The notes under the pieces: model-generated
The model's database searches: none
What the model was told of the DNA's origin: nothing
Seen by the model: only the letters and a program-made list of their open reading frames with translations
In this document: piece by piece, positions 8,209-11,352 of the stretch
How positions within the stretch are numbered: position 1 is the first letter of the stretch
Layout of the letters: each line of letters begins with the position of its first letter
Translations under genes and position numbers: made by a program
Source: a virus
Taxonomy: Duplodnaviria; Heunggongvirae; Uroviricota; Caudoviricetes
Strand: one strand, 5' to 3'
Length of the DNA: 11,569 nt
Virus record (IMG/VR): IMGVR_UViG_3300044728_000133

Positions 8209-8577
8209 TCAGAGGAAGCGTCCGGTCGCCGGATCGCGCTCGCGCCCGTCGGCGATGATGTGGCAGCCGCGGCACAACTCGCGGTAGTCGGTGAGGTCAC
8301 GCTGGTACTCGCCGCTGATGTTGGCCCAATCCGTTCGGCCGACCTTGCCGCATTCGTCGCAGACGCCCGTTTTCGGCTTCTCCCTTCGGAGCCAGTTGTG
8401 CTTCGCCATATAACTGGCGTCTTCGCCTTTCCATAAAGGATGAGCAGGTCCAAATCTGAGTCGGGCGTTGTGTCCGTTGATGAAACGCAACGGCTGTCCT
8501 TTGACGTGACCCATGTAGCTCTTGGTCTTCGTCGCGAGTTTGGTTTCCTCGCCGCACCCACACTCGCAGAGGCTCAT
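8209..8577 (-). CDS. HNH homing-type endonuclease
   Basis: N-terminal LCECGCG...RFINGHN, then WKG..ASY.AKH.W.RR..PK...CDECG...DWANISGEYQRD..DYRELCRGCH, typical of free-standing phage HNHs. ATGA overlap with the endolysin stop. Confidence 0.85.
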   Translation of the reverse strand: MSLCECGCGEETKLATKTKSYMGHVKGQPLRFINGHNARLRFGPAHPLWKGEDASYMAKHNWLRREKPKTGVCDECGKVGRTDWANISGEYQRDLTDYRELCRGCHIIADGRERDPATGRFL

Positions 8578-9320
8578 AGGGATAGATATTCCTTCAACTG
8601 AGTGCCCACCGTGGCTGAGCCGTAACTGTAGTCAGGCCCGTTGCCGTGAGCCCCGTACAGAAGGTCGTGGCCGATCAGGTTCCGTGCGTTGACCCCGAGA
8701 TGGACGTGCGACTTGGAGCCCTGGTAGTAGATACGTCCGACCGCCTCACCCTTTCTGAACTGGCGTCCAACTGAAGGGGCGACAATGAGGTGTCCGTACC
8801 AGTAGTCGATCTTGCTCTTGCCTGCGCCGTAGAAAGCGTCCCCAGGGTTTGAGCTGGACGCCTCGCGCACGATCATGTCCTCGACGGCCAGCACAGTGCG
8901 CCCACCAATCCAGCCGTCGTCGTACGCCGGGTAGTAGGGAATGCCGTCCGTGTTGTGCGTGAGCTGGTGATTGAGCACGCTCGCCCCGCCGTAGTAGAGC
9001 GGCCCGAGATCGGGCACCGGGTTCGGCTTCGGAATGACCGGCACCGACCAGGCCAGATACTGAGCCTTGCGGTAGGCGTCGAGGTACTCCCAGAGCACGT
9101 CCCAGGTAGCCGCCCCGATGTCACCCGAGTTCGGGATTCCCTCGCGGGGCTGGATCACTTTGTGAAGTGCCTCGTACAGCGCCGGCCCGAACTGCGGAGT
9201 GAAGCCAGTGGCAGGCTTCGGTAATAGGTTCGTCTCGTAGCGGTGCACCGCGAACTTCGCTATCTCCACGTCCTTGCCGACCGTGACCGAGTGGTACATG
9301 GGGCGCTTCAAGCGTGCCAT
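8574..9320 (-). CDS. Endolysin: N-terminal peptidoglycan-binding-like domain plus C-terminal M23-like metallopeptidase
   Basis: The N-terminus GKDVEIAK...FGPALYEALHKVIQPREGIPNSGDIGAATWDVL resembles PG_binding_1. The C-terminus RTVLAVEDMIV...YWYGHL...VGRQFRKGEAVGRI...SHVHLGV resembles M23 (Y.HL, G..V.KG..IG, HxH). Confidence 0.75.
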   Translation of the reverse strand: MARLKRPMYHSVTVGKDVEIAKFAVHRYETNLLPKPATGFTPQFGPALYEALHKVIQPREGIPNSGDIGAATWDVLWEYLDAYRKAQYLAWSVPVIPKPNPVPDLGPLYYGGASVLNHQLTHNTDGIPYYPAYDDGWIGGRTVLAVEDMIVREASSSNPGDAFYGAGKSKIDYWYGHLIVAPSVGRQFRKGEAVGRIYYQGSKSHVHLGVNARNLIGHDLLYGAHGNGPDYSYGSATVGTQLKEYLSL

Positions 9321-9991
9321 CAGCGAAGCGCATCCCCGGCAGACCAGTGGCTCACGTTGCGATACCCGGAAAGGTCACCGTAGTCCGCCAGCCTGTCGTA
9401 CTCAACCATCGGTTGTGTCTCAGCCCAGCCGAGAACACGGGTTGCAAAATCGTTTGTATTGGCAGGAGTGGCGTTGGGGGATTCGGAGATGAAGCACTCG
9501 GTCACGCATGCCCAGCCCGCGTCCACGAGCGGCTTAGCCTTCTCTGGAAACGCCCTGCCGTCGTTGTGAACGAAGGGTGCGAAGTTGGTCACCACGCCCT
9601 TGAAGACGTCGAGGTCTTCCAGTTCATGGATGAGATCGGGCCAGTTCTGCTCCTGCGGGTTGGGGACAACATTGCTTTCGGCGTCTAGCTTCTCCGGCGG
9701 AATCTCTCCTTCTCCCAAGAACCCTGCCGCCCCTGATTCCACGAGCGCCTTGCGTGCCTCAGCCGGCGTGAAGTCCATGTCGTTACCAGCCTGTCCTGAG
9801 CGCGTGAACCAGATCGTGTAGATGAGACCCGCGGCATCGCAAGCAGCCTTCATCGCTGCGCTGCGCTGGGCGTTGCCCCACTGATTCCACTCCATTGTGA
9901 TCCAGCGGTAACCCTTGGCTTTGGCCTTCTGCGCGATCTGGGCTGGGGTAAAGGTGGCGTTACTCAGTTCCTCGTTTACCCAGAGCCCGGG
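9320..9991 (-). CDS. TIM-barrel glycoside-hydrolase-like (putative muramidase/glycan-active) ORF, probably translated as the -1 frameshift extension of 9976-10305
   Basis: The ORF track starts at ATG 9895, but the frame is open and protein-like upstream (PGLWVNEELSNATFTPAQIAQKAKAKGYRWITMEW...) with no ATG/GTG/TTG and no good SD. Alternating helix/strand units (AAMKAACDAAGLIYTIWF, ALVESGAAGFLGEGE, AGWACVTECF) suggest a (beta/alpha)8 fold. Confidence 0.6.
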   Translation of the reverse strand, partial: PGLWVNEELSNATFTPAQIAQKAKAKGYRWITMEWNQWGNAQRSAAMKAACDAAGLIYTIWFTRSGQAGNDMDFTPAEARKALVESGAAGFLGEGEIPPEKLDAESNVVPNPQEQNWPDLIHELEDLDVFKGVVTNFAPFVHNDGRAFPEKAKPLVDAGWACVTECFISESPNATPANTNDFATRVLGWAETQPMVEYDRLADYGDLSGYRNVSHWSAGDALR

Positions 9992-9997
9992 AAAGGG
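9943..9997 (-). promoter_or_regulatory. Putative programmed -1 ribosomal frameshift signal (slippery heptamer C CCU UUC plus 3' hairpin)
   Basis: XXXYYYZ heptamer CCCTTTC at 9997-9991, in the correct phase of the upstream ORF (GAC CCT TTC). After a 7-nt spacer, CTGGGTAAA (9983-9975) pairs with TTTACCCCAG (9952-9943). Confidence 0.65.
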
Positions 9998-10305
9998 TCC
10001 GTGGTCTGCTGCGCCTCCAGCAGCTTCAAGCGTTGGTCGAAGGAAACGTGGGCCACACCGTTGTTCTCTCGGAAGCTGTCGAGATCACCCTTGACCTCAT
10101 CGAGATACCTCGCGTCCGCAAGCACCACGTCACGTAGACCCGTTCCATCGTGGTCGGGAGACTCGCCTCCGACCCAGCGTTTCCACTCGGGCAGCTTCGA
10201 AGTGATCGGCGGCAGGCTGACCTTCGCCCGCGCCTCGTTAACGGCCTTGATGAGCGCCGCCATGTCTGCACCCTTTGGTGGCTGGGTGGGTTTCGCGCTA
10301 GCCAT
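9976..10305 (-). CDS. Hypothetical 109-aa protein with C-terminal coiled coil (short product of the frameshift gene)
   Basis: Strong SD TAAGGAGGAAGG before ATG 10305. Heptad-like segment LADARYLDEVKGDLDSF...FDQRLKLLEAQ; ends ...TTDPFPGSG*. Confidence 0.8.
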   Translation of the reverse strand: MASAKPTQPPKGADMAALIKAVNEARAKVSLPPITSKLPEWKRWVGGESPDHDGTGLRDVVLADARYLDEVKGDLDSFRENNGVAHVSFDQRLKLLEAQQTTDPFPGSG

Positions 10306-10314
10306 CCTTCCTCC

Positions 10315-10674
10315 TTATCCAGTCCAGACCTTGATGAGGTTAGCGACGCCGACGAAGGCGACGACGACGAGTCCTCCGCCCAGCCGCGATTGCCAGGCCG
10401 CGAGCCTGTCGACCTCGGACTGAGTCGCATACGTTGAGTCCTTCCGCTCCATCTGGCGGATCAGGTCGTTGTGCTTTGAGGCCAACTCCTGCGCCGAGTC
10501 CAGGGCTGTCTTGACAGCCAGCGCGTCGGCCGTCCGTTGTGTCTGGAGCAACTCCTTCAGCGAAGCGAACTCGGAGGTGAAGTGACGATCGAGCGCGGCA
10601 ATGCGCTCCGTGATGACGGTGATATCGGGCGCGCTAGTACGGCCCGCGCCTGGTCCTGTCTCCTCCCCGGGCAT
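10315..10674 (-). CDS. Coiled-coil protein with a C-terminal transmembrane anchor (lysis-cassette membrane protein)
   Basis: Long amphipathic helices followed by LGGGLVVVAFVGVANLIKVW. Located first in the lysis operon. Confidence 0.7.
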   Translation of the reverse strand: MPGEETGPGAGRTSAPDITVITERIAALDRHFTSEFASLKELLQTQRTADALAVKTALDSAQELASKHNDLIRQMERKDSTYATQSEVDRLAAWQSRLGGGLVVVAFVGVANLIKVWTG

Positions 10675-10708
10675 GAGCGCAGTCTAGGTAGTGCAGACGA
10701 CGACCTAG
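10675..10708 (-). promoter_or_regulatory. Putative leaderless promoter for the lysis operon with an overlapping inverted repeat
   Basis: On the - strand, TAGACT (10686-10681) is followed by 6 nt and ATG 10674, with no SD. IR CTAGGT (10684-10689) / ACCTAG (10703-10708). No consensus -35. Confidence 0.55.
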
Positions 10709-11352
10709 GGGACATTGGTCGGCTGCCCCGGGATCCAGCGATACATCTGTGGCCGGTGGCGAAGCTCGCGTGGGATGCCGCCGCCAAAGTCGTTCCAGGA
10801 GATCTCGGTGCCGGTCGTGCCTAGGAAGCCGTACAGGTTGGTGCGGTAGGTGTTCTCATTCGCGCTGACTTTCAGTGTCCAGTTTGCACCGTTGTCCGTT
10901 GAGACGTAGCAGTTGATGGCAGTCCCGACGAGTTGCATGAGGACGAGGTGGTTGGTGCTGGGCAGTGATGTGAGCGCGCTCGCGAGGTTCGTGAACGACC
11001 CTGCTCCCGGGTTGTAACGCCGGATCGTCCACCCGTCGGGGCCGACGCCGTTGTGCATGAGCACCTCGTAACCCATGAAGTCAGGACCGGCCACGCACAG
11101 GCCGAGCCGCCACCCCGAACCTATCGGGGGCCCCGGGAATCCGATCTTGCCCCAGCACTCCATGTCGCCGTCGAAGCTCTCCGTCGACCAGTAGGCGATG
11201 TTCGCCTGGGTCGGGAACGACTTGCCCCAGAACTGGTTGCCCTGGATCTTCATCGTCTGGCCGACGTCTGTCTTCCAGGGCGGCAGAACCGGGTCCTCGT
11301 TGGGACGGTTGAAGTTGTCGAGGACGGCGGTCGTGTAGCGGATGTCTGCCAT
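10705..11352 (-). CDS. Concanavalin-A-like lectin/glucanase-fold virion (tail-associated) protein
   Basis: All-beta, Gly/Trp/Asn-rich sequence (LDNFNRPNE...W...GYEVLM...WTIRRY...LVGTAINCYVS...WTLKVS..ENTY...SWNDFGGG) characteristic of phage ConA/LamG-like domains. Confidence 0.6.
   Translation of the reverse strand: MADIRYTTAVLDNFNRPNEDPVLPPWKTDVGQTMKIQGNQFWGKSFPTQANIAYWSTESFDGDMECWGKIGFPGPPIGSGWRLGLCVAGPDFMGYEVLMHNGVGPDGWTIRRYNPGAGSFTNLASALTSLPSTNHLVLMQLVGTAINCYVSTDNGANWTLKVSANENTYRTNLYGFLGTTGTEISWNDFGGGIPRELRHRPQMYRWIPGQPTNVP

Follow-up and report, generated by a model that had tools for sequence, protein, structure and literature searches.

How does a phage come to make a complete enzyme-like domain from a reading frame that offers no start codon for it? 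The question is raised by the virus record IMGVR_UViG_3300044728_000133 (Caudoviricetes; an uncultured soil phage), a stretch of 11,569 nucleotides (nt) that is referred to here as the window. On its minus strand, a gene for a coiled-coil protein of 109 amino acids (aa) is followed, in the -1 frame, by an open reading frame (ORF) for a barrel domain, and the initial annotation of this DNA proposed that a programmed -1 ribosomal frameshift fuses the two. Judged by comparison of homologous sequences, it is highly probable that a conserved frameshift of this kind joins the 109-aa protein to the barrel domain. The coordinates of the features are collected in Table 1.

The junction between the two reading frames

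The minus strand of positions 9250-10400 was translated in both frames. The 109-aa gene ends GAC CCT TTC CCG GGC TCT GGG TAA, and the -1 frame reads PFPGLWVNEELSNATFTPAQIAQKAKAKGYRWIT-MEWN before it continues into the 191-aa ORF (9320-9895). Between the previous stop of the -1 frame (about 10087) and the ATG at 9895 there is no ATG, GTG or TTG. Every statement of the initial annotation on this anatomy, i.e. on the Shine-Dalgarno (SD) sequence, the gene end, the heptamer, the GGAGG and the -1 frame without a start, was verified. A slip at the heptamer is predicted to yield a fusion of 105 + 223 = 328 aa with the junction peptide ...TTDPFPGLWVNEELSNATFTPAQIAQK. Heptamers of the form XXX(A/T)3N number 12 in total on both strands of the window; taking the window alone, the odds of an in-phase heptamer arising by chance within the zone of ~100 nt that is open in both frames are ~0.02. 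Because 34 other loci were compared, chance is untenable as an explanation of the position of the heptamer.

Homologues were searched for with the -1-frame translation from the heptamer onward. This query matched 122 metagenomic proteins, all of them of at most 227 aa (lengths up to 394 aa were admitted), and many, at 200-218 aa, cover 96-98% of it. Their N-termini (MNEE, VNEE, LNEE or MW(V/L)NEE) correspond to the window position ...GLW-V-NEE. Since full-coverage homologues begin at this NEE region, the 32-residue extension ahead of the ATG at 9895 is a conserved part of the protein. Junction DNA was taken from Logan, IMG/VR and JGI contigs and analysed by script, giving 35 distinct junctions (some tallies, on codons and starts, cover 33 loci). 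The junctions span 38-68% GC, and their downstream proteins are 36-86% identical to that of the window.

In all 35 junctions the barrel ORF lies in the -1 frame relative to the upstream gene (~95-122 aa), and the -1 frame is open from the heptamer onward in every locus. An in-phase C_CCT_TT[CT] stands at the junction in 34 of the 35 (the exception is L041), 22 of the 35 phage loci having the form C_CCU_UUU, and the 0-frame stop follows at a distance of 6, 12 or 15 nt across all loci. Together with the codon choice described below, this retention of C_CCT_TTY supports the frameshift that had been claimed.

Two types of junction are found. In type A, to which the window belongs, the 0 frame ends PFPGSG, with a stop that shares bases with the codon following the conserved Trp. 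In type B, the 0 frame ends PFPG with TAG, 14 nt 5' of the Trp codon, and the -1 frame encodes PFSG(I/V/L)G-x-G(I/L/V)W, of which the part from G(I/V/L)G onward bridges the gap from the 0-frame stop to the barrel. In this linker, any third base is seen in the Gly codons (GGT, GGC, GGA, GGG) and nothing upstream can initiate there, which argues that the type B linker is translated in the -1 frame. In L005, L024, L029 and L043, the previous -1-frame stop abuts the CCC of the heptamer, the frame opening exactly there; in L004 and L037 it lies one codon before the heptamer.

These junctions also bear on the possibility of an artefact or of decay, in which one gene appears in two pieces owing to a recent frameshift mutation or to a one-base error in the assembly, the downstream part being a pseudogene fragment. 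Distant relatives do exist as single in-frame ORFs, and an odd C5 run and +1 arrangement at one distant locus (L049, see below) could be an assembly error. However, 35 distinct junctions, which come from different samples and assemblers and diverge down to 36% identity, all share the -1 arrangement; purifying selection on both halves is clear, and the two junction architectures keep the frame relation. An assembly error is excluded by this comparison, more than 30 independent assemblies sharing the frame arrangement, and we consider artefact or decay as a whole extremely improbable.

At the slip site, Pro is encoded by CCT in 33 of 33 loci, whereas CCT makes up 17% of Pro codons across these genes. 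All four codons occur in each of nine conserved Pro columns in the barrel, where CCT accounts for 1-9 of about 30 sequences (3-30%). The base before the slip-site Pro codon is C in 32/33 loci against a background of 35%, and seven different codons precede it (GAC, GTC, CCC, ACC, AGC, GCC and CGC). On these codon counts, the heptamer is conserved beyond the need of the encoded Pro-Phe, and far past chance even with about eight independent lineages. All heptamers have been measured in Escherichia coli by Sharma et al., where the most efficient include the class H_HH.U_UU.Y, to which C_CC.U_UU.C and C_CC.U_UU.U belong (PMC4066793).

Other recoding at the same place would mean either that RNA polymerase slips during transcription or that the shift occurs on just the U_UUY tetramer, without tandem tRNA slippage. 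The tetramers U_UU.C and U_UU.U are shift-prone alone in E. coli (PMC4066793), and L041 retains only the U_UUU part (A_CCT_TTT). On the other hand, the first CCC is strictly conserved in 34 of the 35 loci, which argues for P-site re-pairing, and the runs consist of just three C and three or four T. Known transcriptional slippage tracts are far longer than three or four bases. We regard recoding of either kind as very unlikely.

Two separate genes, with the barrel started independently, would form another explanation. Initiation might occur by termination-reinitiation at the GTAA overlap (GUA 9979, CUC or CUG 9967), or at ATG 9895. The initial annotation had held that homologues starting on their own would speak against a frameshift, and the family is divided on this point. 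GTG or TTG lies within -3 to +18 nt of the conserved Trp codon in 15/33 loci, with a stop-start overlap (GTGA or TTGA) like that of ordinary coupled genes, and starts of this sort are annotated by gene callers; in the window, GTA occupies the place of the GTG or TTG seen in some relatives. In 18/33 loci, i.e. the window and 17 others, there is no ATG, GTG or TTG in this range, and the codons at the equivalent position (GTA, ATA, CTC, GTC and GCG) are not known initiators. Five loci (L023, L029, L041, L043 and L044) have no canonical start within the first 45 codons. The ATG at 9895 corresponds to residue 33 of the barrel model described below, inside strand beta2, and a start there would therefore lose beta1, alpha1 and most of beta2; its Met is not conserved, the position being L, Y or M among homologues. 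Independent initiation also leaves unexplained the invariant CCT with its preceding C, the constant -1 frame relation, and the -1-frame coding signature of the GxGxGxW linker, which lies upstream of any possible start. As the explanation of the locus, we judge it unlikely. The downstream ORF lacks its own initiation signal in the window and in about half of the family. Because the barrel has no start codon of its own, the slip would be the only route to a complete foldable barrel in this phage.

GGAG, GGAGG or GAGG is found 11-16 nt 5' of the heptamer in 33/35 loci, and GGAG in just 5.7% of 12-nt windows elsewhere in the upstream genes. The element sits in the conserved Leu-Glu codons of the motif R-x-T-A-L-E. 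Its Leu codon is CTG/TTG in about 32/35 loci, versus 38% of Leu codons in these genes, and its Glu codon is GAG in nearly all loci, versus 65% of Glu codons; the per-site Leu and Glu counts were read from the printed upstream sequences, and a script tallied the SD-like core and the background codon usage. The locus with the imperfect heptamer, L041, is also the sole one without an SD-like element. In the dnaX gene of E. coli, an SD precedes the slip site by 10 nt, and distances of about 10-14 nt are functional. The GGAGG of the window had been judged somewhat far from the heptamer; it is nonetheless the sole conserved flanking element, and the upstream GGAG(G) is a plausible candidate stimulator that could, by analogy with dnaX, pair with 16S rRNA.

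The downstream hairpin, which had been put forward as a stimulator as well, did not hold up. Its energy in the window is unremarkable (minimum free energy (MFE) z-score -0.79), and 16 type-A sequences display no covariation in it (74.6% of cells paired versus 73.5% in shuffles). RNAalifold finds no conserved structure and no covariation in either junction type (-6.7 and -2.6 kcal/mol), and the per-locus MFE z-scores scatter about zero, from -2.3 to +1.9. A downstream GAGGA (Asn-Glu-Glu codons) was rejected as a positional stimulator, since its distance differs between the two junction types.

The two halves of the product and their predicted assembly

The short proteins form a family of ~95-122 aa with the C-terminal motif R-x-T-A-L-E-x(3-6)-P-F-P-G, and homologues of the 109-aa gene start at the equivalent M(A/P)SAKP. 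The AlphaFold2 monomer of the 109-aa protein (confidence score pLDDT 73) contains helices at residues 15-28, 37-46 and 57-100, and the last of them, 44 residues long, runs up to the PFPG junction. Modelling of three copies gives a trimeric coiled coil, parallel and in register, with an interface score (ipSAE) of 0.93 versus 0.00 for the best of three controls, which agrees with the oligomerisation through the coiled coil that the initial annotation had claimed. The trimer runs share at least 97% of their contacts, with a partner pLDDT of at least 91. The calibration mark for ipSAE is reached by 20/30 known homo-pairs and 1/23 single chains; it was set with two copies and other alignments, and holds only roughly for the trimer, which is the sole oligomer modelled. 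A look-up of the 109-aa protein in the ESM Atlas returned sub-threshold leads only. The N-terminal two-thirds of the short protein fall into at least three dissimilar sequence types (L007-L010, L013, L017, L026, L033 and L034 were compared with the window, L001 and L014), and the last ~25 residues and the frameshift cassette are constant. At the sequence level, this suggests module swapping upstream of a fixed junction.

For the -1-frame product, AlphaFold2 with 96 sequences predicts a (beta/alpha)8 or TIM barrel with eight beta/alpha units (pLDDT 94.5, predicted template-modelling score pTM 0.90). Strand beta1 is formed by GLWVNE, alpha1 by residues 16-25 and beta2 by residues 28-34. Whether the extension belongs to the fold had been raised as a check on the claim, and in the model the 32 aa supply beta1, alpha1 and most of beta2 of the barrel.

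The barrel family comprises more than 120 homologues. Pfam, PHROGs and NCBIfam hold no family match for either half, a profile search against PDB sequences gave nothing meaningful for the barrel, and Foldseek against the PDB returned generic TIM barrels alone (template-modelling (TM) score about 0.55). In an exhaustive VIA search, the nearest folds are GH18-type chitinases, endo-N-acetylglucosaminidases (ENGases), hevamine, Cwp19 and SleL, with Z values of 13-15 in a fairly flat list. Clusters of the AlphaFold database (AFDB) with TM scores of 0.64-0.69 contain TIM domains in proteins that also carry peptidoglycan (PG)-binding, amidase, M23 or C39-like domains, and a viral cluster of the ESM Atlas that combines PG_binding_1 with a TIM domain reaches a TM score of 0.71 to the barrel. 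Invariant acidic residues lie at the end of beta4 (E-G-E-I-P), and a nearly invariant Glu ends beta6. Membership in GH18 was considered and rejected, as there is no profile match and beta4 has E-G-E-I-P in place of DxxDxDxE. In the model, the resemblance to the GH18 fold is real but generic, and the barrel is probably a cell-wall glycan hydrolase. Of the earlier description as glycoside-hydrolase-like, the fold holds, with GH18-type and cell-wall-hydrolase barrels as nearest neighbours, and a family profile match is missing.

A profile search of 1.8 billion representatives retrieved more distant relatives of the barrel, some of which have their own Met just before beta1. In eight of these distant relatives, one ORF of 243-433 aa encodes both the barrel and a part N-terminal to it. 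One of them, P0176 (L048:1135-1989), is an in-frame fusion of a coiled-coil module and a distant barrel that retains the junction (...ITDLEATMPPFP... / ...EKRITDLEATMPPFPTATNGRGLFVAWG), so that a natural fusion of the kind foreseen by the initial annotation does exist, at a distance. Because the N-terminus of P0176 aligns to the profile of the upstream protein (hhalign probability 85.7%, E 5.5e-6), the two halves are one polypeptide in a relative. The DNA of P0176 contains CTGGAG and C_CCT_TTC in phase, and a -1 slip would stop after four codons (PFPYGD before the stop). Polarity may be reversed at L048, a single contig, with the slip giving the short form as in dnaX. Among the 122 close homologues there are no in-frame fusions, an absence which, as far as the sequences go, fits a need for both products.

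In the mechanism that we propose, ribosomes on the 109-aa gene would reach C_CCU_UUC (9997-9991), and most would go on to the TAA four codons later and release the short product. A minority would slip back by one base, with re-pairing of tRNA-Pro (CCU to CCC) and tRNA-Phe (UUC to UUU), and would read the -1 frame to give a 328-aa protein that consists of the coiled-coil N-terminal module, a PFPG linker and the TIM barrel. The intrinsically slippery heptamer and the SD-like GGAG(G) 11-16 nt upstream may serve as stimulators, with no part for a conserved downstream RNA structure. The shared N-terminal module would trimerise, bringing short and long chains into one assembly, and the number of enzyme domains per trimer would be fixed by the frameshift rate. 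More tentatively, the predicted wall hydrolase probably acts together with the M23-like peptidase encoded next to it, whether in lysis or perhaps from the virion.

Several observations weigh against this mechanism or parts of it. Covariation, RNAalifold and MFE analysis revealed no conserved downstream stimulatory structure, and the frameshift rate could be low for this reason; such structure is not obligatory for bacterial or phage sites. The GGAG overlaps conserved Leu-Glu codons, so its conservation is partly protein-level, and L041 has both A_CCT_TTT and no GGAG. About half of the loci have GTG/TTG at or beside the barrel N-terminus, and some independent initiation may take place at those codons. 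The barrel has no hydrolase-family assignment in any sequence profile. In three AT-rich contigs of 75-92 kb (L045, L046 and L047), the pair ends a replication/recombination operon and has no M23 neighbour. At the distant locus L049:500-1331 (P0145), the barrel is in the +1 frame.

The upstream ORF of L049 ends ...VAPFPG on GCC CCC TTT CCC GGT TAA, and its barrel begins TTG CCC CCT TTC. An error of 1 nt in the C5 run could account for this, or the arrangement may differ.

Relation to known systems

A programmed -1 frameshift expresses the tail assembly chaperone G/GT in lambda and other tailed phages, as reportedly described by Xu, Hendrix and Duda in 2004 (cited in PMC10885494). On the frameshift reading of the present locus, the two systems are alike in that a -1 slip on X_XXY_YYZ is placed few codons before the stop of a gene for ~100-140 aa, the short and the C-terminally extended products share an N-terminal module, and the downstream ORF has no start. 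In both, the arrangement is positionally conserved across very divergent phages, without strong downstream RNA structure. They differ in that here a full TIM-barrel enzyme domain would be added, in the heptamer (C_CCU_UUY versus G_GGA_AAG), and in that the present locus has no sequence similarity to any cultured phage. A tail-chaperone identity of the pair itself was rejected on gene context: it is not flanked by the major tail and tape-measure genes, and no long tape-measure ORF comes after it.

Gene 10A/10B of T7 and Ig-like domains are cases in which capsid or tail proteins are extended by frameshifting. In them, as proposed for the present locus, a minority of the oligomer subunits receives a C-terminal extension by a -1 frameshift near the gene end. 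Those extensions are short or a non-catalytic decoration, whereas the present one is twice the size of the base protein and enzyme-like.

Hetero-oligomeric endolysins arise from internal translation starts, as in the enterococcal Lys170 and the clostridial CTP1L and CD27L; PlyC is also hetero-oligomeric. Here, too, one locus would give a full-length enzyme and extra non-catalytic modules, with fewer catalytic domains than subunits. In Lys170, CTP1L and CD27L, however, the extra module is a C-terminal wall-binding domain made from an internal start. In the present locus it would be an N-terminal coiled coil made by normal termination, the catalytic domain being added by frameshifting, and the status as an endolysin is putative.

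The tau/gamma products of E. coli dnaX depend on A_AAA_AAG, which is combined with a hairpin downstream and, at 10 nt on its upstream side, an SD-like stimulator (PMC5009743). Common to dnaX and the phage locus is a -1 site with an internal SD-like sequence at a fixed short upstream distance (here GGAG at 11-16 nt), and, as we propose, the entry of two products at a set ratio into one oligomeric complex. In contrast, the slip truncates in dnaX and would extend here, the heptamer differs, and there is no conserved hairpin here. C_CCU_UUU is also used by the NS1' frameshift known in West Nile virus and in Japanese encephalitis virus (bioRxiv 10.1101/2024.10.16.618579), which differs from the phage site in its eukaryotic ribosome, its dependence on a downstream pseudoknot and its unrelated gene.

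A literature search found no published frameshift of this kind and, on frameshifted endolysins, turned up nothing beyond a genome announcement whose GeneMark predictions near lysis genes are unverified (PMC9671017). The mechanism is of a known kind, and its present use is not described in the literature searched. What would be new is the addition of a whole putative catalytic barrel to a trimeric coiled-coil stalk, as modelled here, conserved across a broad uncultured clade and with an upstream GGAG without downstream structure. To our knowledge, conserved programmed frameshifts outside tail chaperones are rarely documented in tailed phages. By placing the catalytic domain on a subset of oligomer subunits, the arrangement would be a simple genetic means to fix the enzyme dose per complex. 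The barrel, in turn, represents an uncharacterised TIM-barrel family of more than 120 members that, judging from the model, likely acts on cell walls.

There are also practical consequences. Gene callers break the locus up into a small gene labelled 'hypothetical' and an ORF that is truncated at its N-terminus, and many database entries start inside the barrel. As a compact natural -1 site without downstream structure at 38-68% GC, the junction would be useful for studies of SD-stimulated slippage on C_CCU_UUY in bacteria.

In its widest form, the hypothesis is that a clade of uncultured soil and sediment phages carries a frameshift cassette (GGAG, spacer, C_CCU_UUY, nearby stop) at the domain boundary of a trimeric coiled-coil protein, which would dose TIM-barrel wall-hydrolase domains per trimer. 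The N-terminal module would be swapped among at least three types, polarity might be reversed in one in-frame relative, and the system would be the first in which frameshifting sets the stoichiometry of a phage lytic or wall-degrading enzyme. We see about equal chances that this entire account is right or wrong.

Gene context and coordinates

The window is phage-like, with a sigma factor, an HNH endonuclease and a collagen-like fibre gene. Neither megablast of the region nor tblastn of the barrel matched cultured phages, and no relative was found in the GTDB species genomes, hence no prophage or host clue.

The 248-aa gene downstream of the barrel has a weak Pfam match to PF01551 (E 0.007, below the cut-off) and a weak match to a PDB 'lytic endopeptidase' (E 0.063). 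In at least 12 homologous loci, the barrel gene is immediately followed by an M23-like gene. The 119-aa protein, whose coiled coil is N-terminal and whose TAA sits within the SD of the next gene, has no family match in Pfam, PHROGs or NCBIfam and is a candidate holin-like or membrane-anchor partner; a homologue occupies the same position in L016.

The M23-like neighbour and the 119-aa protein with its one transmembrane segment fit a lysis cassette. Glycosidase and M23 peptidase can also be virion-borne, as in tail enzymes of the phi29 gp13 type. We consider a role in lysis somewhat more likely than not, a virion-associated wall-degrading role a lesser possibility, and any other role unlikely. 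The 'lysis module' of the initial annotation gains partial support from the conserved M23-like neighbour, with a virion-associated role as the less likely alternative.

Table 1. Positions of the frameshift junction, the genes it joins and the adjacent features in the window
Feature	Position	Strand	Remark
109-aa 0-frame ORF, short product	9976..10305	(-)	small helical head and long helix (residues 57-100); end ...TTDPFPGSG (stop)
Strong Shine-Dalgarno AAGGAGG of the 109-aa gene, before ATG 10305	10310..10316	(-)	overlaps TAA at the end of the 119-aa gene
SD-like GGAGG within the gene, placed 16 nt 5' of the heptamer (Leu-Glu codons CTG GAG G); candidate stimulator on the upstream side	10014..10018	(-)	
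Slippery heptamer C_CCU_UUC	9991..9997	(-)	in phase; predicted re-pairing P-site CCU to CCC, A-site UUC to UUU
0-frame stop TAA, 12 nt past the heptamer	9976..9978	(-)	overlaps -1-frame codons GTA AAC
-1-frame coding segment, 223 aa and stop	9320..9991	(-)	short PG linker, then complete (beta/alpha)8 TIM-barrel domain (predicted)
ATG, ORF-finder start of the 191-aa ORF (9320-9895)	9893..9895	(-)	internal Met within strand beta2
Local hairpin CUGGGUAAA / UUUACCCCAG, arms 9983-9975 and 9952-9943	9943..9983	(-)	non-conserved element
248-aa M23-peptidase-like gene (SHVHLG)	8574..9320	(-)	its ATG overlaps TGA of the barrel gene (ATGA)
119-aa coiled-coil protein, single C-terminal transmembrane segment, holin-like candidate	10315..10674	(-)	translation …GGGLVVVAFVGVANLIKVWTG

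In L045-L047, the operon that the pair ends encodes DNA polymerase III alpha, RecA, a VWA protein and a RuvC or endonuclease VII resolvase, and the convergent genes beyond the pair include an IMPDH-like gene and a uracil-DNA glycosylase (UDG). Elsewhere in the window, positions 8209-8577 (-) encode a 122-aa Cys-rich protein (CxCGC...CxxC...CRGCH) that looks HNH/zinc-finger-like and matches phrog_25114 (E 5e-8). Positions 10705-11352 (-) encode a 215-aa protein with a weak BNR/Asp-box match, homologues of which are found upstream of the pair in L020 and L021.

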